This document shows, piece by piece, positions 504-26,838 of a stretch of DNA of 64,000 bases (position 1 is the stretch's first letter; the number at the start of each line of letters is the position of its first letter). Position numbers and translations under genes: made by a program. Below the pieces are notes generated by a model. That model was not told where the DNA came from. It worked only from the letters and a program-made list of their open reading frames with translations, and did no database searches. The DNA is taken from NCBI GenBank assembly GCA_001831095.1, contig MIDP01000013.1:2364-66363 (forward strand). The letters are read 5' to 3'. This DNA comes from Verrucomicrobia bacterium GWF2_51_19. Lineage in GTDB: Bacteria > Verrucomicrobiota > Verrucomicrobiia > Opitutales > UBA12508.

Positions 504-1027
504 TGCGACTGCTAAAACGCAAACTCTCACTGCGCGAAAAAGGGCTCTTGACGGCTTGTGTCTGGGGCATCCTCTGTTTGTGGTTGAGCAGCGAGCTCAA
601 GGGCTTTCGAGAGCTGAATGGCCAAGTTGACACCATCGAAAAGGCACTGAAAAAACAGTCTGTTTGGATTGCCAACGAGGGGCTCATCCGCGAACGCTTA
701 CAGCAGTTGGTCAGCCGCCTCGACATCAAGAAGTCCCTCGACCGCAACACCTTCGCTGGACGCGTCGACGAATTGGCCGCAAAGAGCGCCATTCACTACA
801 CCCTCGAGTCCCCTAAAGAACAAGCAGGCGACGTCTTTGACATCTTTTCGCTGAAGTTGCGCTTTCGGGATTGCGACCTGCCTAGCCTCATTGCTTTCGA
901 AAAGGCCATCTACGACGAATCGCCCTACATGAGCGTTGAGTCGCTGCAGATGAAGCCAAACCCAACCAACCCGCAGTTGCTGAACGGCACCTTTGCTATA
1001 CTTGGAATGAAATTGACACTAAAATGA
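503..1027 (+). CDS. PilO/GspM-like inner-membrane assembly protein
   Basis: 174 aa with an N-terminal TM helix (LLTACVWGILCLWL), a coiled-coil and a C-terminal ferredoxin-like region. It sits between the PilN-like gene and the secretin, and its stop overlaps the secretin start. Confidence 0.5.
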   Translation: MRLLKRKLSLREKGLLTACVWGILCLWLSSELKGFRELNGQVDTIEKALKKQSVWIANEGLIRERLQQLVSRLDIKKSLDRNTFAGRVDELAAKSAIHYTLESPKEQAGDVFDIFSLKLRFRDCDLPSLIAFEKAIYDESPYMSVESLQMKPNPTNPQLLNGTFAILGMKLTLK

Positions 1028-3174
1028 AACGACTATTCCTATTTTTGATCCCCTTATTGACATACGCGATGCCCGCGGCCGATATCGTCAAAGACATGGA
1101 CGATGAGCCCGTATTCTTGGACAAGGATAACTTTATCGCGCCCGAAAAAGAGTCAGAGACCATTGACTCCATTGTACTCGTCGACGAGTCTGCCCAACAG
1201 ACCCTCGCCCTCTTGGAAAAGTTGACTGGAAAGATCATTCTGCCGCAACAAAATATTCCCAAAGTCAGGATCAACCTCAACATCAACACGCCCCTCAGCA
1301 AGGAAGAGGCCATTCTCGCCATCGAGAGCATTCTCGTCCTCAACGGTATCGCCATCACCGAAATGGGCGACAAGTTCCTCAAAGCCGTGCCCACCAGCCG
1401 CGTCAAGAGCCAATCCCCGACCTTTTTATCAGAATCGTCACTGCCGCTCGTGTCCAGTGAAAACATTTACACCAAGTTTTTCCGCCTCACCTACCTCTCG
1501 ACAGACGAAATTCGCATGATGCTCGCCCCCTCGATGACACCCGAATCATCGGCCCTCGTGACGCTGCAAAAATCAAACTCCATTCTCGTCACCGACACGC
1601 TGTCCAACATTCAGCGCGTGGAACAGATTTTGGAAAAGATCGACAAGCCGGCAGACGTCCGCGAAGAGGTGCTCTTTTACGCCCTCAAAAACACCAGCGC
1701 CAAGGACCTCGTTCAACACCTCACACGCTTTCAAAACAACATTTTTGGAAAGTACCTGAAGGGCAACACCAGCTTTGAGGCCGATGATCGCACCAACCAA
1801 CTCATCGTCATCACGCCGCCCGGCCACAAGCCCCTCATCGATCAAATTGTAAAAGGTCTCGACCTCGATATTCAACCGCTGACAAAGAGCGAGGTGTTTT
1901 ACATCAAGCACGCCCAGGCCAAAGACCTCTGTGCCGTCCTCAAGCGCGTCATTACGAGCCAGCAGGACAAAGAAGAAAAGAAAGATGCCGACAAAAAAGA
2001 TGCCGACAAAAAAGATCAAGATGACCAGTCGAAAACGCCCGCACAAACCTTCTTAGATCGCCTGCGCCAAATGCGCGAACAGCAGCAAAAACCAACGACT
2101 GGCTCAAGTGAAAGCGCCCAAAAGTTCAGCAAAGACTTCTCTCTCGACTTCGACGAGCGCAGCAACGCCATCATCGTTTTCGGTAACCCAACAGACATCC
2201 GCCAAATCAAAGAGCTGATTGATAAAGTTGACATCGTCCTGCCCCAGGTGCGCGTCCAGGTGATCATTGCCGAGGTAAAGCTCACCAACGACCAGGTCTC
2301 AGGCCTGCAGTCCTTCGGCATCGGGTATAATGAAAAATACAATGAATCGACGACAGGAACTACCATTCTGAAAAACGGCGAAAAGATTTATTTGAAAAAC
2401 ATTTCGAGCGCCATCACGACAAAACTATCGTCTCCATTTACATTGAATGGCTCCCTCCAAGATTTTGCCATCGATACTGTCTTTCAAAAAGCTCAAGAAA
2501 ATCAGAATATTCAACTCTTGTCGGCACCGATGATTCTAACGACCCACAATCAAGAGGCCTCTGTAACTATCGGAGAAAAACGTCCTATTGTTGAGGCCGT
2601 TGATACCAACAAAACTGATACCAACAACGTTACACAACGCGTTAAATACCAAGATATCGGCATTACATTGAAGATAAAGCCACTCATAGGTTCCAATGGC
2701 ACCGTTCAACTCAAAATTGATCAGACAGTCGATAACATATCTGGTTCGACTACTATCAATAATAATTCTCAGCCGATTATCACAAACAGGACGACTTCTT
2801 CCTTTGTCAGTGTCAATGACCGAGACACAATTGTTCTGTCCGGTCTACAGGAGCGTACCAACACGAAGACAAAATCAAAAGTTTTCCTCCTCGGATATTT
2901 GCCTTTCTTGGGCAGCGCGCTTTTTTCTCCAGAGAGTGACGTTGTAGAAACTCGTGAACTGATCCTCTTTATCCGTCCGCAAGTGGTCTACATGCCGAGT
3001 GATGCCGTTCCGCATGCCAAACAGATGATGGAGCAGATTGATGGCGGGAAGGACATTCAAACTTTCACAGATACCGGTAAGTTCCCACTGGAAAAGACGG
3101 AGCCAGAAAAGGGCAGCAAAGCGACGAGCCGCACAGAAAAGTTGTACAACAAAAAGATGGATGAAAGTAAATGA
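1024..3174 (+). CDS. Secretin (PilQ/GspD family outer-membrane channel)
   Basis: Signal peptide and repeated NolW-like N domains. The C-terminal secretin domain begins VLPQVRVQVIIAEVKL and ends LPFLGSALFS...RELILFIRPQVV. A low-complexity KKDADKKDADKKDQDD linker is present. Confidence 0.9.
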   Translation: MKRLFLFLIPLLTYAMPAADIVKDMDDEPVFLDKDNFIAPEKESETIDSIVLVDESAQQTLALLEKLTGKIILPQQNIPKVRINLNINTPLSKEEAILAIESILVLNGIAITEMGDKFLKAVPTSRVKSQSPTFLSESSLPLVSSENIYTKFFRLTYLSTDEIRMMLAPSMTPESSALVTLQKSNSILVTDTLSNIQRVEQILEKIDKPADVREEVLFYALKNTSAKDLVQHLTRFQNNIFGKYLKGNTSFEADDRTNQLIVITPPGHKPLIDQIVKGLDLDIQPLTKSEVFYIKHAQAKDLCAVLKRVITSQQDKEEKKDADKKDADKKDQDDQSKTPAQTFLDRLRQMREQQQKPTTGSSESAQKFSKDFSLDFDERSNAIIVFGNPTDIRQIKELIDKVDIVLPQVRVQVIIAEVKLTNDQVSGLQSFGIGYNEKYNESTTGTTILKNGEKIYLKNISSAITTKLSSPFTLNGSLQDFAIDTVFQKAQENQNIQLLSAPMILTTHNQEASVTIGEKRPIVEAVDTNKTDTNNVTQRVKYQDIGITLKIKPLIGSNGTVQLKIDQTVDNISGSTTINNNSQPIITNRTTSSFVSVNDRDTIVLSGLQERTNTKTKSKVFLLGYLPFLGSALFSPESDVVETRELILFIRPQVVYMPSDAVPHAKQMMEQIDGGKDIQTFTDTGKFPLEKTEPEKGSKATSRTEKLYNKKMDESK
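1981..2010 (+). repeat. 15-bp tandem duplication (aaagatgccgacaaa x2) inside the secretin linker
   Basis: Direct reading; encodes KDADK KDADK. Confidence 0.9.
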
Positions 3175-17911: not shown

Positions 17912-19291
17912 ATGCCTGAAGTCATTCAAAATCATGTAGCTGCCCAGCAATTGGACCAATACAGTTTTGACGACCTCCTCGTTCTCGGAGAATCAAACTT
18001 TGAGAGCATTGATCCGGAAAAGCTAGCACGCACGTCGCCGTACGAGATCAGCCGCTTTCTCGAACGACTGGACCTAGAAGAGCAGAAGACTTTTCTAAAA
18101 AAGCTCGGTGAGCGTCAGGTTTCGGACGTCTTGGCGGAAATGAACGCCGAGGATTCCGCGGAACTCATCACTGCGATAAGGGAGTACAGGGCGGTCAAGA
18201 TTTTGGAATCCCTGGGACCCGATGACGCCGTTGACCTCGTTAGCGAGCTCGATGAAGAGGACCGCGTCCGCCTGCTCGCCAAGATGCACGCTGACAAGGC
18301 GCTGACCATTCAGAAGCTGCTTTCATACGATCCTGACACCGCTGGCGGCGTCATGACACCCATTATTCCGACGGTCCACGACAACCTCACCGTCGACCAG
18401 GCCATCGATCACGTTCGCCACCTCCGTCACGACATCGAAAACATTTATGACCTCTACGTCGTCGACGCCCACAAGCACCTCTTGGGCACCGTCTCGCTGC
18501 GCCGCCTGATTCTCTCTGACCCCGGTCAACCGATCGCCGCCGTCATGAAAAAAGAGCTGCCAGGCATCTGTCACCCAAATCAAGACAAGGAAGAGGTCGC
18601 ACGCGCGATGGCCGAGTACAATTTGCGCGAAATCCCCGTTGTCGACAAGTCTGGAAAACTCTTGGGTGTCGTCACGCACGACGACGTCATCGACATTTTA
18701 CAGGCAGAGGCCACAGAAGATTTGCAAAAGCTTCACGGCGCCGGCGCGGATGAGAGCATCACGGACACCATCAAGTACAGCGTTCTCAAGCGTACGCCCT
18801 GGTTACTCATCAACCTGCTCACCGCCTACATGTCCGTAGCCGCCATCGCGCACTTCCAGAGTGCCATCGCGCAGTCAACACTGCTCGCCGTCTTCATGAC
18901 ACTCGTAATGAGCCTCGGTGGAAATACGGGCGCCCAGACCCTCGCCGTCTCCATTCGCGGCCTCGCTCTCGGCGAATTTCACGACCGAGACTCACTCATG
19001 TTGTGTCTCAAGGAAATGCTAAAGGGCTCCATCAGCGGATTCGTTGTGGGCATTAGCTCGGGCCTCCTGTCCGTCCTCTTTACACACAACATCTGGGTCG
19101 GTGTCACCGTCTCTGCGGCCATGATCCTCAATATGACGCTCTCTGGCCTTGTCGGTGCCTTCATTCCAATCGTTCTCCATCGACTGAAATTTGACCCCGC
19201 CCAGAGCTCCTACATCTTTTTAACAGCCATCACCGACGTCTCCGGAATTGTCATCTTTTTGAGCCTAGGCAAATGGCTAATTCTCAAATGA
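17912..19291 (+). CDS. mgtE: Magnesium transporter MgtE
   Basis: MgtE N domain, two CBS domains and a 5-TM C-terminal channel domain. Confidence 0.9.
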   Translation: MPEVIQNHVAAQQLDQYSFDDLLVLGESNFESIDPEKLARTSPYEISRFLERLDLEEQKTFLKKLGERQVSDVLAEMNAEDSAELITAIREYRAVKILESLGPDDAVDLVSELDEEDRVRLLAKMHADKALTIQKLLSYDPDTAGGVMTPIIPTVHDNLTVDQAIDHVRHLRHDIENIYDLYVVDAHKHLLGTVSLRRLILSDPGQPIAAVMKKELPGICHPNQDKEEVARAMAEYNLREIPVVDKSGKLLGVVTHDDVIDILQAEATEDLQKLHGAGADESITDTIKYSVLKRTPWLLINLLTAYMSVAAIAHFQSAIAQSTLLAVFMTLVMSLGGNTGAQTLAVSIRGLALGEFHDRDSLMLCLKEMLKGSISGFVVGISSGLLSVLFTHNIWVGVTVSAAMILNMTLSGLVGAFIPIVLHRLKFDPAQSSYIFLTAITDVSGIVIFLSLGKWLILK

Positions 19292-20268
19292 CACCCAATA
19301 ATACACCATTTACCGTCTTAGAACTCAAGGGCATCCCGGAGGAAGAAAAACGGACCTTTACGGCCATTTTGCTGGTGCTCAAGGTCAACCAAAAGGAGGC
19401 CCGCAACGGCTCGCCCTTTCTCACGATTGAGATGGGAGACGCCACTGGCAGCTTTTCATCTACCTGTTTTTCGGGCAACAACACATTTGACATCCTGTCA
19501 CGCAACGACATTGAGGGCGAAGTGGTTGCTCTCGAGGGCCAAACCGACACCTTTAACGGTAAGTTCGCGCCACGCATTCTCCACATTCGAGTATTGGGTG
19601 GTGAAGAAAAACAGGCCTGGTTGCCGAAGTTGATCGAATCTAGCCCCGAAGACCCCAATGCCCTTTGGAGTGAGTTGGAAGGCTTTATCGCATCCATTCA
19701 ACACGAAAAGCTGAGAAAGACGGTCGAGGCTGCCTTTCGCGAACACGCGGATGCCCTCAAAGTCAGCGCGGCTGCCATCAGCATGCATCACGCCTATCGC
19801 CACGGGCTGCTCGAACACACTGTCCACGTTACGCGACTCGCTCAAGCCGTCCTGCCGCTCTATCCCGAGGTTTCCCGCGACCTAACACTCGCAGGCTCCC
19901 TTCTCCACGACATCGGTAAAGTCCTTGAATACGATGGCGACCGCGTCGTCAAGAAAACACAGGCCGGCATTCTCCAGGGACATGTCATTCTCGGTTACCG
20001 AATCGTTCGCAAGGCGGCCCTGCAGTCCCAGCTAGACGAATCGCTGATGGAACGCCTGGAACACATCATTTTGAGCCACCAAGGCGCACTTGAATGGGGA
20101 GCACCTGTTCTCGCGGCAACGCCAGAGGCCATCCTCGTTTCACTCGTCGACAACCTAGACGCCAAGCTCGGCATGGCCCAAAAGGCCCTCCGATCGACAC
20201 CCCCCCATGAGCCCTTTTCCGAATTCATTCCTGGGCTGCAGTCGAAGCTGATGGTTGCCCCGGCATAA
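19288..20268 (+). CDS. OB-fold + HD-domain phosphohydrolase (YhaM-like 3'-5' exoribonuclease family)
   Basis: N-terminal OB fold, then HHAYRHGLLEHT and LLHDIGK HD motifs. The start at 19288 forms an ATGA overlap with the mgtE stop. Confidence 0.8.
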   Translation: MTPNNTPFTVLELKGIPEEEKRTFTAILLVLKVNQKEARNGSPFLTIEMGDATGSFSSTCFSGNNTFDILSRNDIEGEVVALEGQTDTFNGKFAPRILHIRVLGGEEKQAWLPKLIESSPEDPNALWSELEGFIASIQHEKLRKTVEAAFREHADALKVSAAAISMHHAYRHGLLEHTVHVTRLAQAVLPLYPEVSRDLTLAGSLLHDIGKVLEYDGDRVVKKTQAGILQGHVILGYRIVRKAALQSQLDESLMERLEHIILSHQGALEWGAPVLAATPEAILVSLVDNLDAKLGMAQKALRSTPPHEPFSEFIPGLQSKLMVAPA

Positions 20269-20379
20269 GACAAGCATCAGCGACTCAAACTTATTGTTTG
20301 TAGATAATAATGTTTCGACGTCCCACCTTCTTGAATCAAGTGCTTGTAACGCATATTTTTACATTACACTTGCATTGGC

Positions 20380-20759
20380 TTATTTTTTAAGTTGCTTATC
20401 AATCTTCATAATATGATTGACGAGCCAGTCACTGGCGACAGTGAGCAGTTTTATGCTGGCGCCGATTGAGGCGTTATTGACCTCTGCCCGGAGTTGATCG
20501 AGCATCGAGATAAAGATGGCGTGCTGTTTTTTATTTTCTGCGGCGGCCGGGCAATGCATTTTGTCCATCCAAACTTCTTCATCGTGGAAGTGTTTTTTGA
20601 CGTAATTTTCTAAAAAACAAAAATCTCTTTGGTCTTTTCTTTGCCTTTACCTTCCTTCATGAACTGATGAAAGCTATTGATTTGTCGAACGAGTTCTTTG
20701 TGCTGAGTGTCGACAGACTCTACACCTGTCTCGAGAGCGGAGGTCCATTGGATGAGCAT
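20380..20759 (-). pseudogene. Bacteriohemerythrin, split by a 1-nt frameshift in a homopolymer
   Basis: The N-terminal part MLIQWTSALETGVESVDTQHKELV..KEIFVF stops at TAG (20610-20612). The next frame continues LENYVKKHFHDEEVWMDK..WLVNHIMKIDKQLKK, carrying the remaining His/Glu/Asp iron ligands. The shift lies in the A6 run at 20612-20617 (T6 on the coding strand); one extra base would restore a ~126-aa hemerythrin. Confidence 0.8.
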
Positions 20760-20763
20760 AGTT

Positions 20764-21753
20764 TTATTCCTTTTCGATTGTTAGGTATGCCAAAGTTTGA
20801 TTGAGCAACTGGTAAACGATTTCGCCAAAAGTGATTGGACCTACAACGTGGCCGGTCTGTTTCCCTTCGAGTTCGGAATATAGGAAGTTGAGAATGCAAT
20901 TGCAAGAAAAGCAGATCTTTTCCGCTTTATCTTTTGGCATGTGCGTAACAAAGCGCTCGACATAGTTGTCGATTGGCTTGGCTTGCTTGTATTCAACTCC
21001 TTCAAAAAAGGGCGCATAAAAGGTGACCTTACCGCTCTTTCCCTCGACGGATTGAAAGCTGATATTGATACGCGTGCCTGTATAATCGGCGACGAGTGGC
21101 AGGCGAATATCCAGCTTTTTGCTTTTGATGTAGTCCGCAAAGTTGACTTCCTTCCCGTTGACAAAGGCCTTTTCAGTCGTCCAGCCCGAAGAACTGAAGG
21201 TGATGGTATCGCCGTCACCCTGTTCAAAAATATTGACAATACCGACGTCGGCATAAAAGCCTTTGGCGAGCTTACAATGAAAGACGAGGGCTCTATCAGA
21301 TGAAATTTTGCCAGTTTGCCCATCGACCACCTTAGCGGAGACTTTGCCGAGGTCAGATAAGTGCATGCCGGTGATCCACCCCACCAGCGGAACCTTTGCA
21401 AATTGCTTGTAAGCAGCGGCATTCATCGCAAAGCTGAGGTGTACCGGACTGGTTGCCGGAATCACGATCAAGCTAAAGCCGTTATCGTAAGCGTCTTCGT
21501 AGACAGAGGCAATGCTCTTGTCGTCATAAGCTACGATTTTTGCATCCACAACAGTTTTGGGCAATTCCGTAACGAAGATCTCATCGCGACTGACTTTGCC
21601 ACCCTGTTCGGCCATAAAGTATGGAATCGTTCCGCCGATCCACTGCCCTTTTGGCAACTGTGAAAGCATACTTTCGTCAGCAGCAAGGTACAGTTTTTTA
21701 CCAGATTTAATGAGTGAGGCAACGGCTGCTTTTTTATACATAACTTGTTTCAT
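20764..21753 (-). CDS. Conserved-looking hypothetical protein (329 aa), possibly a sensory partner of the hemerythrin
   Basis: Long clean ORF with soluble alpha/beta-like composition. Its stop is 4 nt from the hemerythrin start. I could not recognise a domain with confidence. Confidence 0.65.
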   Translation of the reverse strand: MKQVMYKKAAVASLIKSGKKLYLAADESMLSQLPKGQWIGGTIPYFMAEQGGKVSRDEIFVTELPKTVVDAKIVAYDDKSIASVYEDAYDNGFSLIVIPATSPVHLSFAMNAAAYKQFAKVPLVGWITGMHLSDLGKVSAKVVDGQTGKISSDRALVFHCKLAKGFYADVGIVNIFEQGDGDTITFSSSGWTTEKAFVNGKEVNFADYIKSKKLDIRLPLVADYTGTRINISFQSVEGKSGKVTFYAPFFEGVEYKQAKPIDNYVERFVTHMPKDKAEKICFSCNCILNFLYSELEGKQTGHVVGPITFGEIVYQLLNQTLAYLTIEKE

Positions 21754-21755
21754 GG

Positions 21756-22094
21756 CTATTTCCCTAGAATGAGCGCAATATCGTGTTTCACATCTGGCAA
21801 GCGTTCGTGCTTTTGCAGGAGCTCGGTGAATTCTCGCGTGTATTCTTTTATATTAAGTAGGTTTGGATCTTTCCGCACTTCCATTTTGATTCTCGCTAAA
21901 AGGATATTGAGTGCCAAAAATTTAAATTGCACTTGCCCTTTTCCTTTAAGCAGATCTCTGATGACGGTTTCGGGTATTTCCATGGGGATTTCCGGTTGAC
22001 TTTGCCAAGTATTCCAAAAGAACGGCCTATTGTCAAGCGTACTCAGGCATTTCTTGAAGCCTTTCTGTTTTCTGTTGGCTGTGGGCTGTTTCAC
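21756..22094 (-). CDS. Hypothetical protein (112 aa)
   Basis: This ORF fills the gap between the ankyrin gene (11-nt spacer) and the 329-aa gene (2-nt spacer). No motif recognised. Confidence 0.45.
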   Translation of the reverse strand: MKQPTANRKQKGFKKCLSTLDNRPFFWNTWQSQPEIPMEIPETVIRDLLKGKGQVQFKFLALNILLARIKMEVRKDPNLLNIKEYTREFTELLQKHERLPDVKHDIALILGK

Positions 22095-22105
22095 GGGCCT
22101 GTGAA

Positions 22106-24247
22106 TTAATCGCCAAAAAAGCCCTTAAATAAGCCAAAAAAGCCCTTAAATAAGCCACCCGCTAGATTACCTGGAGCTGCAAGTACTGACGTGATCGTCG
22201 CGGTGTTTTTAACAACGCCATTGACGTTTTCAAGCAAGTCTTTGACTCGTTTTTGATCTTCCTCACCGAGGACGTTTAATACGCCTTGGTTATTGGCTTT
22301 TTCGGTGATGGCCTCTATATTTTTAACGGACGTTTGGAGATCATCGAGAAGGCTCGCCCCCTTTTCGCCGCCCAATAAGCCAATGACACCGTTGTCTTTG
22401 ATAAAATTAACCAATTTTTCAGCTATCTGGATCGAGCTTGAAACCTTTGCGCGCAACTGATTCCAGCCATCTTGAGTCGTATCGACAGTCTTTTTTAAGA
22501 TTTCAGTTACTACTGTTGTGATGTTATTTATATTTTCAGTGACAGATTGGACAAAAAGTTTTTGGGCTTCTTCTGATTTTACGACTTCAAACAGATCTTT
22601 GTCTTTAAATTTTTCTATAATGCTTTTGACGGCTTGAGTACGAAATTGTACGATTTTCCCTTTATCGCCCTCCAACTCTATATTTCGTTCGCATTGTATG
22701 GCTAGCTGATTGTAGAAGATATCGAGTGGTGTGAATTCTTCATTCCCTAATAAAAACAATTCTGGTTTCTTTTCGAGAAATAATTTAAGACTGTCTAAAA
22801 AGACATTACACTCAGTCTCATCTGTAATCCAAGCAGCTTGATGCATGCAGGCGTTTAGAAAAGTCTTTCCGATAGTCTTTCCGGAATCCATCTGTGTATC
22901 TAGGACAGACCAATCGAGCTTTTGCAAAAAACTGCGGAGTTTGTGGAGTGTGCCTTTTTGCAGGAAAGGCAAGATTTTATTAGAATCTGTGGCGCAGAGT
23001 AGTTGTGGATTTTTTTCAATGAGTTTTCCGATAATGCGATCGCCTTCCTCGCCTGTGCTGACCAATAAAGTGGCTAGATGCAGAAGTGTTTTTTCGTTGT
23101 CGATTACTTTCCCATTCTCGTCGACTTTCTCATCGAAACGAGTGTTAATGCCCTCAGGCAAGCGTTCGATAAGCGTGTCGAGAATGGCCATGTGTGCATC
23201 CGTCGCAAAAGCAAACTTCATCCAAAATGCGGCATCCTCCTCATTGGTTATTTTCTCTGGAAGTATGGCCTGAAGCGTTTCCACGTTGCTCGACGCCAAT
23301 GCTATATCGACAAAGGGAGCGATGTCTTTAGGCATTACATTTTTATTAACCAACATGGCTTTAACGAGGTCAACGTTTCCAGTGCTGATGGCCACTGCCA
23401 TGGCACTGTCGCCTGGAAGTTGAAGGCCAACATCCGCGTTTTTATCGAGTAACAACAGCGCCACTTTGGTATTGCAAAGGGCCGTAGCGGTGTAGAGTGG
23501 CGTAAAGCCATCCTTGGATGTCGCATGGATATTGACTCCTTTTGCGAGCAAACAATTGAATAACGCTTTAGTCTTGTCGTTTTCTGTGTCGTTTTCTGGA
23601 AGGCAACAAAGGAGGTGAATAGGCGCAAAGCCTTTCTCGTCTTGTTCTGACAAGATATCCTTGTCCAATGCATCTAGAAATGACACATTACCAGCTTCTA
23701 TAGCCTTGTGGGCGAGCGTTTTACGTTCTGAATCGTTGGCGTTTTCAACGATGGCATTGACTATCTTAGGATCTATGCTGGTGTTCTTCAAACACGCGTT
23801 GATAGCGCTCTCGAAAGAGAATACCTTTTGTTGTTCCGGTGTCATCGAACCACGTTTTTCTAAAACCTTTTTAGCAAGTTCCGAATCATTCTCTTTTATA
23901 GCGAAGTCGAGAAAGGCGGAATTTACATAGCCTGCATCCAGGGCTTTTTCGATGAACTTTTTGGAAAGGTTGTGTTGACTGATCGCGCCCAAAATGCCTT
24001 TTTCGATCACGTCGCCCGACCGTACTTTACGCCGGCTGATGGGCGTCATCGCTGCATCCGAAGTGACGATGGCCGACCAGCCTTTCGCGCGTGCGTAGAG
24101 GTTAAATATGGCATTGGCCATCCAATTTCCCTTATCTCGCACGATGACGATGGATCGCTTGTTGTCTAAAAAGCAGACCTTTTCTTTGGCCAACAAATTT
24201 TCCTGAATGGTACCAAAATTCTCAGGGGTTTGGTCGAGTTTTAACAT
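22106..24247 (-). CDS. Ankyrin-repeat protein (713 aa) with a helical C-terminal region and a duplicated GLFKGFF tail
   Basis: Ankyrin consensus segments (GFAPIHLLC..LLAKGVNIHATSKDGFTPLYTATA..LLLDKNADV..GDSAMAVAISTGNVDLVKAML). AAGGAG Shine-Dalgarno 7 nt before the ATG, which lies 12 nt after the rpoN stop. Visibly more A/T-rich than the flanking genes. Confidence 0.85.
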   Translation of the reverse strand: MLKLDQTPENFGTIQENLLAKEKVCFLDNKRSIVIVRDKGNWMANAIFNLYARAKGWSAIVTSDAAMTPISRRKVRSGDVIEKGILGAISQHNLSKKFIEKALDAGYVNSAFLDFAIKENDSELAKKVLEKRGSMTPEQQKVFSFESAINACLKNTSIDPKIVNAIVENANDSERKTLAHKAIEAGNVSFLDALDKDILSEQDEKGFAPIHLLCCLPENDTENDKTKALFNCLLAKGVNIHATSKDGFTPLYTATALCNTKVALLLLDKNADVGLQLPGDSAMAVAISTGNVDLVKAMLVNKNVMPKDIAPFVDIALASSNVETLQAILPEKITNEEDAAFWMKFAFATDAHMAILDTLIERLPEGINTRFDEKVDENGKVIDNEKTLLHLATLLVSTGEEGDRIIGKLIEKNPQLLCATDSNKILPFLQKGTLHKLRSFLQKLDWSVLDTQMDSGKTIGKTFLNACMHQAAWITDETECNVFLDSLKLFLEKKPELFLLGNEEFTPLDIFYNQLAIQCERNIELEGDKGKIVQFRTQAVKSIIEKFKDKDLFEVVKSEEAQKLFVQSVTENINNITTVVTEILKKTVDTTQDGWNQLRAKVSSSIQIAEKLVNFIKDNGVIGLLGGEKGASLLDDLQTSVKNIEAITEKANNQGVLNVLGEEDQKRVKDLLENVNGVVKNTATITSVLAAPGNLAGGLFKGFFGLFKGFFGD
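22112..22153 (-). repeat. Perfect 21-bp tandem duplication encoding LFKGFFG x2 at the C-terminus of the ankyrin protein
   Basis: gccaaaaaagcccttaaataa x2, read directly. Confidence 0.95.
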
Positions 24248-24259
24248 AGTGTTTCTCCT

Positions 24260-25714
24260 TTAAAAGCGACGGCGGAGGTGTGTCGGCAGGATATTGAGCT
24301 CTTCGCGGTACTTGGCGACAGTGCGGCGCGCAACGTGAATGTTTTCAGCAGCGAGTGCATCGGAAATCGCCTGATCGCTGATGGGCTTTTTGCGATCTTC
24401 TGTTTCAATGAGCAGCTCAACTTTCTCCTTAACGCTGCGGTTCGAGAGCGACTTACCTTTGTCGATATCGATGAAGCCAGAGGTAAAGAAATAGCGCAAT
24501 TCGAAAGTGCCGTGGGGCGTCTCGACATACTTGTTTGCGATGGCGCGGCTGACGGTAGTCTCGTGGACGCCTATAAGGTCCGCCACGCTACTCATTGTGA
24601 GTGGTTTGAGCTTCGCCGTGCCGTGTTCAAAAAAGTCGTATTGGAAGTCCAAGAGGGCATGGGCGATATTTTGCAAGGTTTCCTGACGCTGGTGAATGGC
24701 GTTGATGAGGAATTTTCCCGAACGGATCTTGTTGCGGATGTAGTCTCTTTCGCTCTCGGAAATCTTTTCCTGAGCCATCAACTCCTTGTAACTGCGGCTG
24801 ATCCGAAGACGTGGAATGAACTCGCTGTTGGAGCGTACAACCCAGCGGTCGTTGTCTTTATAAATGGTCATGTCGGCGACGATCACCTGGTTGTTGATGG
24901 CCCCAAAGCGACGAGCCGGGGCGGGATCGAGGTGGGAAATGTCTTCAATGGCGTCCTGAATGGCGTTCATCGAGATAGAAAGCGCATGGGCCAACTCTGG
25001 CACGCGTCGACGCAAGAGGAGCGTGTAGTGATCCCTCAAAATCTTGTAGGCGATGCTGTCACGCAAACCCTTGTGGTCCAGCTGCATCAACAGACATTCC
25101 TGTAGGTTTTGCGCGCCGATACCGATTGGCTCCAACTTTTTCAGTGCCGCAACGGCCTCCCTAACAACCTCAACGTCAGCCGCATTTGCCTCAGCTATTT
25201 CCTCGATTGTAGCCGTCAAAAAGCCGTTATTGTCGAGACTGCCGAGCAAGTAAGGCAGGACCGCACGCACGGGTTCAGAATAATCTGTAAACTTCACCTG
25301 CTCCATGAGGAAGTCTTCTAGCGAGGCCTCGGAAGCAACCGAGTCTAACAGGTGTTGGTGGCGCAGGCCGTCTTCGCGCGAAAATGAATAATTGGAGCTC
25401 TGTTCGGCAAAGTACTCATTCCAGTCGCGGTCCAACTTGGCGAGCGTTGCATATTCTTTATCAAAGTTAACCTCGTTGTTTTCCTCATTCACAGTCTGGT
25501 CAAATGGAGAGGTCTCTTTAGGCGTCTCTTCTTCGAGACTGATGCCGAGCATGGGAAGTTCCTCGAGGGCCGGATTGGTTTGCAGCTCTTCTAAAATCGT
25601 ACTGCGCAACTCGAGAGTTGGTACCTGGAGAATTTTCAACGACTGACGCAGCTGAGGCGCCAGTATTTGCGTCTGGATTTGCGTCTGGAGTAATTCTGGA
25701 TCCGTCGTTTGCAT
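24260..25714 (-). CDS. rpoN: RNA polymerase sigma-54 factor
   Basis: Gln/Leu-rich region I (LQTQIQTQILAPQLRQSLKILQ), a core-binding region and the C-terminal RpoN box (ARRTVAKYRE). Confidence 0.95.
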   Translation of the reverse strand: MQTTDPELLQTQIQTQILAPQLRQSLKILQVPTLELRSTILEELQTNPALEELPMLGISLEEETPKETSPFDQTVNEENNEVNFDKEYATLAKLDRDWNEYFAEQSSNYSFSREDGLRHQHLLDSVASEASLEDFLMEQVKFTDYSEPVRAVLPYLLGSLDNNGFLTATIEEIAEANAADVEVVREAVAALKKLEPIGIGAQNLQECLLMQLDHKGLRDSIAYKILRDHYTLLLRRRVPELAHALSISMNAIQDAIEDISHLDPAPARRFGAINNQVIVADMTIYKDNDRWVVRSNSEFIPRLRISRSYKELMAQEKISESERDYIRNKIRSGKFLINAIHQRQETLQNIAHALLDFQYDFFEHGTAKLKPLTMSSVADLIGVHETTVSRAIANKYVETPHGTFELRYFFTSGFIDIDKGKSLSNRSVKEKVELLIETEDRKKPISDQAISDALAAENIHVARRTVAKYREELNILPTHLRRRF

Positions 25715-25718
25715 TTAT

Positions 25719-25842
25719 AAAGACCATTGAAAAATGCCTTATAGCGGCGTTCTCGTCGTTCGGGCTAAGTCACCTACCTTAAGTAGGCTCCTGTCGCCCT
25801 CGCTCCTCGGGCCTTGCTATAAGCCATTTTTCAACGGTCTTT
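25719..25842 (-). repeat. Family A element, copy A3 (inverted)
   Basis: The outer arms aaagaccattgaaaaatgcc / gccatttttcaacggtcttt pair with two mismatches. The core is the reverse complement of A1/A2 with the cctac..gtagg central hairpin. The element begins 5 nt from the rpoN ATG. Confidence 0.9.
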
Positions 25843-25857
25843 CCTTTCTTTAAAATA

Positions 25858-26838
25858 TCATATCATATCGGAACGCGTGGTCAGCCCGCTGGCCTTGTAC
25901 TTTTCAGGACTGATGTAATCCTTCAGGTATTCAGCCAATTTTTCATTGGTCGGGCCATAACCATCGCCGTAAATGTAGAGCTCGAGCGCGTTGAGCATTT
26001 CTTCTGCATTCTGATAACGCTCTTCGCGGTCGCGCGTCAAGGCTTTTTTCAAAATCACGTGGAGGCGATCATCGATCTCTGGGCGCACCTTCGGATAGTC
26101 CGGCAGAGGTTTTTCCAAAATATTTTGAATGGTCTGTTCAGGATCCTCATCGGCAAATATGTTTTCACCCAATAACAGCTCTGAGAGTACAATGCCGCAT
26201 GGAAAGATGTCGGCCCGCTCGTCCGTGATCTCTCGCCGCGCCTGTTCTGGAGACAGGTACTCATCTTTACCAGCAATCACCTTGCCTTCCTTGTTGTACA
26301 TCAAGTTGAGGGCCTTGGCTATGCCGAAATCGGTGAGCTTGACGTCGCCCTCCAAGCTGAGCATGATGTTTTTGGGGTTGACGTCGCGGTGGACGATGCC
26401 GAGAAGCTCTCCGTTGGTATTGCGTTTTTTGTGCGCGTAAGCCAGGCCGCGGCAGAGTCTCGAAACGATAAAGACAGCGATGTCAATGGGCACTCGGGCC
26501 TTTTTTTCCAGATGAAAGACCATAAACTCGTCCAAGTTGATCCCGTTAACGTACTCCATGACCATGAAATACTGCTGTTCGGTGTTTTTCCCGAGGTTGT
26601 AAATCTGGACGATATTGGTGTGGATCAAGTCTGCAACGAGCTTTCCCTCTCCAATAAAATTGTCGCGGAAGGGCTTGATGGACGAAAATTCTTCCCGAAT
26701 GACTTTGAGCGCCACCGTCTTTTCAAACAAGCCGGCCCCACGCTGAATCGCTTTGTAGACGGAGCCCATGCCGCCCTCTGCAATCAATTCGAGAATTTCG
26801 TACTCAACCGTATTGCTGAATTGGAAACCAACATTCAT
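25858..26838 (-). CDS. Hanks-type Ser/Thr protein kinase (kinase domain only)
   Basis: Gly-loop GGMGSVY, VALKVI, catalytic loop HRDVNPKN (Asn at the usual Lys position), DFG and SPE motifs. No TM helix or sensor domain. Confidence 0.9.

Follow-up and report, generated by a model that had tools for sequence, protein, structure and literature searches.

Taken together, our comparative and sequence-based analyses favour, with some reservation, the view that the region behind rpoN in Verrucomicrobia bacterium GWF2_51_19 is a lineage-specific accessory islet and not a sigma-54 functional unit, and we found nothing that functionally links this patchwork of genes to sigma-54. The organism branches deeply within the Opitutales, comes from groundwater and has a reduced genome of about 1.3 Mb. 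In this genome an ancestral layout of kinase-rpoN followed by tsaB-like/alr or by MgtE-HD appears to have been rearranged, and about 3.9 kb of accessory DNA of low GC separates the rpoN stop from an inverted MgtE-HD pair. This DNA appears to consist of three unrelated pieces, namely a gene for a 713-aa ankyrin-repeat protein (ANK713), a 75-aa protein together with a DUF6976 protein, and a hemerythrin gene. Their co-location with rpoN would then mark a landing place of accessory DNA in a compact genome.

The gene string and its assembly

The window, i.e. the whole stretch of 64,000 nucleotides that was analysed, contains the following features, given by position, strand and the basis on which each was assigned.

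25858-26838, minus strand: Ser/Thr protein kinase (Pkinase domain, E 2.5e-42)
25720-25855, no strand: highly repeated intergenic element ('A element') between kinase and rpoN (Logan word depth)
24260-25714, minus strand: rpoN (sigma-54), intact (three sigma-54 Pfam domains and TIGR02395)
24248-24259, minus strand: rpoN-ANK spacer of 12 nt with Shine-Dalgarno AAGGAG (read from the sequence)
22106-24247, minus strand: ANK713, orphan ankyrin-repeat protein of 713 aa (Ank_2 match)
23689-23960, minus strand: polymorphism hot spot in ANK713, residues about 97-186, in the helical-repeat region (bubble and assembly alleles)
22112-22153, minus strand: perfect 21-bp tandem duplication in the ANK713 C-terminal tail (repeat family D3)
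22008-22036, minus strand: predicted sigma-70-like promoter candidate (consensus scan)
21756-21983, minus strand: 75-aa helical partner of DUF6976 (alignment with homologues from Met38)
20764-21753, minus strand: DUF6976 protein, 329 aa (PF22396, E 2e-136)
20380-20759, minus strand: frameshifted hemerythrin gene (translations and Hemerythrin Pfam match)
58194-58793: SycD/LcrH chaperone (128.9 bits, cut-off 104.8)

The string that the initial annotation had described, from the kinase through the repeat element, rpoN, the ankyrin gene, a small ORF and DUF6976 to the hemerythrin, is real. RpoN carries the Sigma54_AID, CBD and DBD domains (PF00309, PF04963 and PF04552, all above cut-off), scores 415 bits against TIGR02395 (cut-off 277) and has the RpoN-box ARRTVAKYR readable in its translation. 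The kinase and the A element do lie directly upstream, and because the element sits there the kinase-rpoN gap has widened to 143 nt, as against at most 34 nt in relatives; its summed Logan word depth is about 2000, where the flanks have about 13, and variant contigs and joints are numerous. On the other side, the ANK713 ORF does begin 12 nt behind the rpoN stop, with the AAGGAG overlapping the stop codon and standing 7 nt before the ATG. Since this Shine-Dalgarno spacer leaves no room for a promoter or terminator, rpoN and ANK713 are, judging from the layout, almost certainly co-transcribed.

The remainder of the string is less uniform than had been proposed. The 112-aa ORF read from a GTG at 22094 was over-extended, as its homologues align only from Met38 (ATG 21983, 75 aa), and because this ATG is the true start the gap between ANK713 and the small gene is about 122 nt and not 11 nt. 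Within it we find a promoter candidate (TTGACA, 17 nt, AATACT, with TG; 10 of 12 consensus matches) and no terminator-like fold (z 0.32). From there on the small ORF, DUF6976 and the hemerythrin reading frame are tightly packed: the 329-aa ORF, which is the DUF6976 protein, follows after 2 nt as had been described, and the spacing of 4 nt to the hemerythrin reading frame was also correct, but that gene is frameshifted and not intact. Co-transcription of the whole string, as first suggested, is thus almost certain for rpoN and ANK713, whereas the DUF6976 pair probably has its own promoter. Close spacing says little about co-transcription here, because the median same-strand gap in this genome is 13 nt (crude ORF calls), and the only RNA run from the site (a metatranscriptome, SOLiD, 1.5 million letters of contigs) leaves the locus uncovered.

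An assembly chimera that joined rpoN to foreign DNA would be in keeping with a MAG in 43 contigs, with contigs ending in repeats close to either edge of the region (at 20339-20365 and at 25720-25855) and with the deviant GC of the islet. However, the rpoN-ANK junction lies inside a single Logan contig (23793-25769) free of mismatches, another (20339-23740) covers the remainder, five separately built assemblies span the junction in base-for-base agreement, and Logan depth is even at 11-14 over the whole region, and we regard the probability of a chimera as negligible.

The rpoN neighbourhood in the Opitutales

Our comparison set comprised 40 order-level genomes, with the gene order around rpoN read in 20 relatives' loci and two metagenome loci. 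All relatives belong to other families, the nearest rpoN being 54% identical, so conservation over a shorter range is beyond the reach of this comparison. The typical order in these loci is kinase-rpoN, followed either by tsaB-like and alr genes or by MgtE-HD; in 10 of the 20 relatives' loci a same-strand orthologue of the kinase immediately precedes rpoN, and one precedes it directly in both metagenome loci. Neither an ANK gene nor DUF6976 was found behind rpoN in any of the 40 relatives or the two metagenome loci; none of the 40 genomes has an ANK713 orthologue, and the single one with DUF6976 (G025) does not have it near rpoN. The neighbourhood is atypical, as the initial annotation had held, and the linkage itself is absent from all relatives at order level, an outcome which that annotation had itself taken to indicate chance juxtaposition. 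A young, lineage-specific coupling would nevertheless be compatible with this absence, given that the relatives are of other families, and we count this against our islet reading.

The reference originally used to call the neighbourhood unusual, i.e. the proteobacterial operon lptB-rpoN-hpf-ptsN-rapZ-npr, does not apply. The two share an intact rpoN with closely spaced genes of the same direction behind it, but hpf, ptsN and rapZ are all absent behind rpoN here, and unlike in that operon the typical partner of rpoN in the Opitutales is the upstream Ser/Thr kinase. In fact hpf (Ribosomal_S30AE), present in 36 of 41 Opitutales genomes, never adjoins rpoN in those searched, lying more than 0.3 Mb away or on another contig, and in the present genome (G000) it is found on contig C9. 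The rpoN-hpf-ptsN layout is simply the wrong reference for Verrucomicrobia.

Pieces of the typical layout are found elsewhere. MgtE-HD is convergent to rpoN in the window whereas it is co-directional in two of the loci compared (L023 and L124), and the tsaB-like gene is now on contig C5, where it is followed by an 802-aa low-GC3 ANK gene that overlaps it by 20 nt; it is beside this second large ANK gene, wedged directly behind tsaB, that we set the landing-place view of the islet. Moreover, ANK713, the small gene, DUF6976 and the hemerythrin lie at GC3 percentiles of 6, 3, 15 and 10, respectively, compared with 57-94 for the flanking genes. A search for direct repeats bordering the islet, such as a mobile island might have, gave none. 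An unusual rpoN neighbourhood can arise when a compact genome is rearranged and accessory genes are inserted into it, and as posed the rpoN-ANK finding matters little.

ANK713 and the ankyrin repertoire

ANK713 has an Ank_2 match at residues 228-303 (E 2e-11, 44.7 bits, cut-off 27.3), and among PDB entries it is ankyrins and DARPins that match, over residues about 160-330. Outside its own population, a word-indexed set of 5.8 billion proteins returned ANK-repeat matches only (E at least 5.6e-8), an exhaustive phmmer search of 1.84 billion representatives found no homologue of the C-terminal 374 aa (residues 340-713), and the ESM Atlas, queried with the whole protein and with the C-terminal part, gave only ANK-repeat matches; there is no paralogue in its own genome. 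By these searches ANK713 is an orphan. Its single-sequence AF2 model is poor (pLDDT 52, pTM 0.32), and a fold search was dropped because a model made without an alignment was too poor to use. The 21-bp tandem duplication encodes a GLFKGFF-GLFKGFF tail with the same copy number in six of six assemblies. We considered whether this tail could be a shared C-terminal sorting motif; the motif occurs in no other ORF of the genome.

Within the population, variation is concentrated in the repeat region. A bubble allele (Logan contigs) carries 6 SNPs at 23741-23792 at a depth of 4.3 versus 9.5, a second allele (L036) carries 7 SNPs at 23839-23959 versus 1 SNP across the other 13 kb, and three assemblies are broken or N-filled exactly at this hot spot. 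Two mechanisms that could have produced it were set aside: a DGR, as only 5 of 13 substitutions fall at a coding-strand A and the genome holds no template copy, and gene conversion, as no donor copy of the region exists anywhere in the genome. Changes in ANK713 overall are 8 nonsynonymous and 6 synonymous, giving a hot-spot dN/dS of roughly 0.4 by a rough site estimate, which points to constraint and not to neutrality.

These data bear on whether ANK713 could be a recent orphan gene that does little or nothing, tolerated in a read-through position and decaying along with the hemerythrin. Its want of homologues beyond ANK repeats, its low GC3 (0.473, the 6th percentile) and low codon-adaptation percentile, the poor AF2 model, the polymorphic N-terminal region and the already frameshifted adjacent hemerythrin would all agree with such a view. 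However, the 2.1-kb frame has stayed open in a reduced genome of 1.26 Mb, the C-terminal 527 residues are identical in six of six assemblies, the hot spot appears constrained, and a good Shine-Dalgarno precedes the gene, and on balance we find decay distinctly unlikely.

ANK713 is also one of many. The genome has 20 Ank_2 matches in 1.26 Mb, about 12 ANK genes, and 9 of the 11 scored lie at or below the 8th GC3 percentile. It further encodes an injectisome, with SctV (918 bits), SctC (350.8), SctJ (227) and the SycD/LcrH chaperone listed above all exceeding their NCBIfam cut-offs; the chaperone gene is a T3SS-type gene in the window, where a T3SS-like module had been noted. Among the Opitutales searched, injectisome genes were confined to small genomes of at most 2 Mb, several of them with ANK expansions. 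Because the genome combines about 12 mostly low-GC3 ANK genes with an injectisome, ANK713 would most likely be a protein-binding factor directed against a host or prey cell, and otherwise a cytoplasmic scaffold; its gene, with its own Shine-Dalgarno, is most likely a passenger on an mRNA that starts with rpoN or with the kinase and rpoN.

The case for an effector role is an indirect one. No chaperone gene adjoins ANK713, its first 25 residues contain zero Ser and four acidic residues, and this acidic, Ser-free N-terminus has little resemblance to the usual T3S signal; by eye, seven other ANK proteins have a Sec-signal-like hydrophobic N-terminus that ANK713 does not. Through the SD-coupled junction of 12 nt, expression of ANK713 would depend on that of rpoN, and this might itself be functional, a point that again weighs against the islet reading. 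We can speculate that ANK713 serves the injectisome as an effector whose production is hard-wired to rpoN expression, with a binding surface polymorphic in the population, in an undescribed host-associated groundwater lineage of Opitutales, which we hold to be unlikely though not far-fetched.

Compared with the ANK sets of Legionella/Coxiella, Wolbachia, Rickettsia, chlamydiae and sponge symbionts, this genome is similar in having many ANK genes in a small genome, atypical composition, lineage-specific orphans, an injecting secretion system and, for ANK713, polymorphism localised to the repeat region. It differs in that the organism comes from groundwater with no host known, that ANK713 lacks both a Sec signal and a T3SS chaperone gene beside it (its secretion being putative), and that it is SD-coupled to a housekeeping sigma-factor gene and not placed in an effector islet. 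Another precedent is katB-ankB of Pseudomonas aeruginosa, in which an ankyrin protein is co-transcribed with a stress enzyme. There too the ANK gene lies directly behind a non-effector gene and shares its transcript, but AnkB is a small, exported protein whose partner is a defined enzyme, whereas ANK713 has 713 aa and no export signal and follows a sigma factor.

The DUF6976 module, the hemerythrin and sigma-54

In G025 an 82-aa ORF precedes DUF6976, and the 75-aa protein aligns with it as well as with the first 85 residues of fused DUF6976 proteins of 410 aa; across phyla, 76 of 80 genome loci have this partner domain either immediately before DUF6976 or in one protein with it. DUF6976 itself has 3697 homologues of 53-63% identity across bacterial phyla and Asgard archaea. 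As the copy here is closer to those of Calditrichia, Asgard and Chloroflexi (55-63%) than to the Opitutales copy in G025 (only 38%), it appears to have been acquired horizontally, and by sequence the small gene and DUF6976 are an independent, horizontally spread module. Its expression would probably come from the sigma-70-type promoter candidate in the 122-nt gap; this step of the islet reading is open to the objection that the candidate is a consensus match only.

What the module does can be approached through its fold. DUF6976 has an invariant CxC motif, and 4 of 21 members give weak FIST_C hits, none of which reaches gathering level (best E 0.006). The AF2 model (pLDDT 83) finds FBXO22 as its top PDB match in Foldseek (E 0.02, probability 0.92, TM 0.31), with FBXO22 chains as the best PDB matches; solved structures gave no match by sequence, and our literature search returned no papers on DUF6976. 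The modelled fold is thus weakly FIST-like, and the module may well be a FIST-like small-molecule or redox sensor. NosP, a haem-based NO sensor, is a FIST-domain auxiliary encoded beside a histidine kinase (PMC12570481), and similarly 8 of 80 DUF6976 loci, the only ones with a kinase within 5 kb, adjoin GAF-HisKA_3 kinases and response regulators. Unlike NosP, DUF6976 has no adjacent kinase in this genome and its ligand binding is putative, and its similarity to FIST sensors stays below family thresholds throughout; it also differs from them in its obligate 75-85-aa helical partner or fusion and in the CxC.

A frameshift within a run of six T (A6 at 20612-20617 of the plus strand) breaks the hemerythrin gene, with a TAG after codon 49 and the reading resumed in another frame. 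Its C-terminal part scores 39.7 bits against the Hemerythrin Pfam (cut-off 25.3), and the same split is found in all assemblies and Logan contigs, with no indel variant among the contigs. This is the sole hemerythrin of the genome, and it is probably decaying. As a candidate conserved partner of DUF6976 it was rejected: hemerythrin-like sequence occurs at 1 of 80 loci.

These findings allow the regulatory role first suggested for ANK713 to be weighed, here in the form of a functional sigma-54 operon in which it serves as a cytoplasmic adaptor connecting sigma-54 or its activators to two sensors, the FIST-like DUF6976 and the hemerythrin for O2/NO/iron. Such an arrangement would be consistent with the SD-coupled junction, with the lack of any terminator-like structure in the string, with an ANK713 that has no signal peptide or TM segment (maximum 19-aa hydropathy 1.43), with two bEBP genes in the genome, on contigs C40 and C18 (full Sigma54_activat matches of 238 and 235 bits), and with the weak FIST resemblance of DUF6976, NosP-type FIST proteins being auxiliary sensors (PMC12570481). 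However, the linkage is missing from every relative and metagenome locus, ANK713 is an orphan with no conserved partner, the DUF6976 pair, for which a promoter of its own is probable, moves from phylum to phylum independently, the hemerythrin is not only broken but also no usual neighbour of DUF6976, and tight spacing is the norm of this genome. Sigma-54 promoters (TGGCAC-N5-TTGC-type) occur in the window at chance level (65 found, 71 expected), and a genome-wide scan revealed no clear regulon. We know of no ankyrin protein that regulates sigma-54. The proposed link between sigma-54, the ankyrin protein and the sensors thus finds no support, and such an operon seems to us very improbable. Its most specific form, in which ANK713 is a lineage-specific cytoplasmic adaptor whose synthesis keeps a set stoichiometry to sigma-54 by SD coupling and which modulates sigma-54 or the two activators on FIST-like sensor input, is slighter still in its chances, although if true it would be the first ankyrin-type regulator of sigma-54.

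The broader meaning of these observations lies outside the rpoN-ANK junction. The small Opitutales genomes with an injectisome are probable host-associated lineages, this groundwater one included, and the recurrent Ser/Thr kinase-rpoN pair across the order hints at kinase control of sigma-54-dependent transcription. For DUF6976, a family with thousands of members in anaerobes, Asgard archaea included, the obligate partner of 75-85 aa, fused in some lineages, together with the weakly FIST-like fold provides a testable handle.

The gene string behind rpoN

The gene order reported in the initial annotation (kinase, repeat element, rpoN, ankyrin-repeat gene, small ORF, DUF6976 gene, hemerythrin) is real, with two details corrected below.

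Features of the rpoN region (window coordinates)
25858-26838, minus strand: Ser/Thr kinase, first gene of the string
25720-25855: one copy of a highly repeated element, filling the 143-nt kinase-rpoN gap
24260-25714, minus strand: rpoN, complete sigma-54
22106-24247, minus strand: ankyrin-repeat (ANK) ORF of 713 aa (ANK713), next after rpoN
23689-23960, minus strand: polymorphism hot spot, ANK713 residues about 97-186
True start ATG 21983, minus strand: small ORF of 75 aa, between the ANK713 and DUF6976 genes
20764-21753, minus strand: DUF6976 protein, 329 aa
20380-20759, minus strand: hemerythrin reading frame, frameshifted
17912-20268, plus strand: MgtE-HD genes, convergent with the string

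All three sigma-54 domains were found in the rpoN product, which scores above the TIGR02395 cut-off and has an RpoN box, and two enhancer-binding proteins are encoded away from this locus in the source genome (1.26 Mb in 43 contigs, 92% complete, its family's only representative). The rpoN stop lies 12 nt from the ANK713 start, with an AAGGAG that overlaps the stop codon and sits 7 nt ahead of the ATG. Because five separately built assemblies and Logan contigs agree on this junction at even depth, a chimeric join was ruled out; all DNA of these assemblies apparently comes from one groundwater site, and they are therefore not independent samples of nature. Such tight spacing argues for co-transcription of rpoN and ANK713, as had been proposed, but says nothing of shared function; same-strand genes of this genome are a median of 13 nt apart, with 52% of gaps at 15 nt or less (crude ORF calls). 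The chance that one of the genome's about 12 ANK genes (20 Ank_2 matches; about 1290 ORFs) adjoins rpoN is about 2%, which is low, yet post hoc among many possible "interesting" neighbours.

The small ORF had been over-extended to 112 aa (from GTG 22094) and placed 11 nt after ANK713. The 82-aa ORF directly upstream of DUF6976 in G025, the one related genome with this gene, and the N-terminal extensions (about 85 aa) of DUF6976 proteins of about 410 aa in other organisms all align to it only from Met38, that is ATG 21983, and therefore the real gene encodes 75 aa and its spacer from the ANK713 stop is about 122 nt. This gap holds the region's best sigma-70-like match on this strand (TTGACA, 17 nt, AATACT, with TG before), and no terminator-like fold was found in it. 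As for the hemerythrin, the sole one in the genome, its reading frame is present but the gene is not intact, with a frameshift in a T6 run. All assemblies share the identical break, the contigs show no indel variant, and a decaying gene is the best reading; since all data are single-site, the frameshift might also be a systematic homopolymer error of sequencing.

The assembly graphs are broken at either end of the region (25720-25855 and 20339-20365). The repeat in the kinase-rpoN spacer has a summed depth of about 2000 versus 13, which suggests some 100 copies or more; the spacer that follows the hemerythrin (20339-20365) reaches about 3-4 times the depth of its flanks.

The rpoN neighbourhood in Opitutales

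The string had been judged atypical against the proteobacterial rpoN-hpf-ptsN layout, a yardstick that is inapplicable here: 36 of 41 Opitutales genomes carry hpf, yet at a long distance from rpoN or on a separate contig, so that adjacency of the two is not the expectation. The sigma-54 has at most 54% identity to any other, its nearest named homologues being from Puniceicoccaceae, Opitutaceae and Opitutales. We fetched 20 rpoN loci from relatives, clustered their ORFs and then named the clusters. In 10/20 the gene immediately upstream of rpoN is a Ser/Thr kinase, at most 34 nt away; a TsaB-like gene follows rpoN in 7/20 and alanine racemase in 5/20. The two metagenome loci with the most similar sigma-54 proteins are both kinase-rpoN, and in one of them and in the relative G037 MgtE and an HD-domain gene come after rpoN on the same strand. 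Judged from gene order, the kinase and rpoN may form a conserved kinase-sigma-54 operon. The upstream kinase is seen in about half of the sampled Opitutales families plus both metagenome loci; in the source genome the pair is split by the repeat-element insertion.

No ANK gene, DUF6976 or hemerythrin lies behind rpoN in the 20 relatives' loci or the two metagenome loci, no ANK713 orthologue was found in 40 relatives, and DUF6976 occurs in one of the 40, away from rpoN. The linkage, whose absence from related genomes had been named as a sign of chance juxtaposition, is thus absent at the only phylogenetic depth available, and the proposal that the string is a regulatory unit with sigma-54 is unsupported.

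MgtE-HD in the window converge on the string rather than following rpoN, so their orientation is opposite to that in L023 and L124 (a relative's and a metagenome locus). The TsaB-like gene is now on contig C5, with alr on another part of C5, and at C5:74607-77568 it is followed, with a 20-nt overlap, by an 802-aa ANK gene placed likewise, with a GC3 in the 1st percentile. Among ORFs of the genome, GC3 of ANK713, the small gene, DUF6976 and the hemerythrin falls in the 6th, 3rd, 15th and 10th percentiles, versus the 57th to 94th for the kinase, rpoN, HD and MgtE genes. No direct repeats flanking these four genes were found. They look like accessory DNA inserted at a rearrangement point, and the string is best read as an accessory islet specific to this lineage, lying at a rearrangement breakpoint.

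The DUF6976 pair

Thousands of DUF6976 homologues, 53-63% identical, are spread over Calditrichia, Chloroflexi, Desulfobacterota, Myxococcota, Spirochaetota, Bacillota, Omnitrophota and Asgard archaea; the CxC and WIGGxIPYF motifs of DUF6976 are invariant. The window copy is nearer to these other-phylum proteins than to that of G025 (38% identity), which indicates horizontal acquisition. In 76/80 genome loci DUF6976 is either immediately preceded by a helical domain of 75-85 aa or fused to one, and this conservation marks the small protein as its obligate upstream partner. The fusions, in some loci, are the proteins of about 410 aa, and the loci span many bacterial phyla and Asgard archaea. 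The remaining neighbours vary (GAF-HisKA_3 kinases in 8/80, a hemerythrin-like sequence in 1/80).

FIST_C gave weak matches in 4/21 DUF6976 members. An AF2 model from an alignment was good (pLDDT 83, pTM 0.79), and its best PDB matches were four chains of FBXO22, the protein behind the FIST domain's name (E 0.02, prob 0.92, TM about 0.3), a weak likeness in predicted fold. NosP and other FIST proteins serve kinases as auxiliary sensors (PMC12570481). The description "sensory-looking" is therefore reasonable for the DUF6976 pair as a weak structural inference, and the pair is a self-contained module with no tie to sigma-54.

ANK713, secretion genes and the meaning of the islet

Pfam places ANK repeats in ANK713 only around residues 228-303, and PDB ankyrins align over about residues 160-330. 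A single-sequence AF2 model, poor overall, predicts helical hairpins at about 77-500 and long helices at 559-690. The protein has neither a signal peptide nor a TM segment, and the duplicated GLFKGFF tail occurs nowhere else in the genome. Apart from its repeats ANK713 is an orphan: neither a 5.8-billion-protein search nor, for residues 340-713, one run exhaustively against 1.84 billion representatives returned a homologue beyond ANK-repeat matches.

Over 13.2 kb, 8 positions separate one alternative assembly from the window, 7 of them at 23839-23959; Logan unitigs of the source run form a two-allele bubble at 23711-23822 (6 differences, depth 4.3 versus 9.5); and three assemblies have a break or a run of Ns exactly between 23689 and 23960-24055. 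Across six assemblies every ANK713 amino-acid difference falls within residues 97-186, the C-terminal 527 residues being identical. The hot spot holds at least four haplotypes, which diverge by about 5% over some 270 nt, compared with about 0.01% in 13 kb outside it, and its 8 nonsynonymous and 6 synonymous changes give a dN/dS of roughly 0.4 (sites only roughly estimated). The changes lack adenine specificity, and no donor copy of the tract was found in the genome. The pattern suggests a constrained gene in which several haplotypes coexist and one tract has diverged locally, through recombination or as old balanced alleles; it is compatible with, not proof of, a binding surface under pressure.

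In nine of 11 scored ANK genes GC3 does not exceed the 8th percentile, and seven ANK proteins have a hydrophobic Sec-signal-like N-terminus (judged by eye), which ANK713 lacks. The genome encodes a flagellar export gate plus a non-flagellar T3SS, with SctV, SctC and SctJ all above equivalog (NCBIfam) cut-offs. Its injectisome-type genes are scattered over contigs C36, C5 and C16, alongside flagellar genes. The T3SS-type gene noted in the window is borne out as a SycD/LcrH-family chaperone.

Secretion-related features of the window
56235-60462, plus strand: SycD/LcrH chaperone (58194-58793) between family-less ORFs of 571 and 549 aa, candidate translocators
1024-3174, plus strand: secretin, nearest GspD-type T2SS (309 bits, below the 351 cut-off)

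The secretin was rejected as SctC, being closer to GspD; the true SctC is on C5. Of 41 Opitutales genomes, the 13 in which SctJ exceeds its cut-off all measure 2 Mb or less, and the ANK-rich Opitutales genomes fall among these 13, a pattern rather than a test, as related genomes are not independent observations.

Taken together, ANK713 is a probable passenger of rpoN expression and most plausibly belongs to the organism's host- or prey-directed ANK proteins; next to it would stand a FIST-like sensor pair that was acquired independently, and a hemerythrin gene in decay. The more reusable results are the DUF6976-partner module, the conserved kinase-rpoN pair, which may be an operon, and the apparent association of injectisomes with small genomes in Opitutales.
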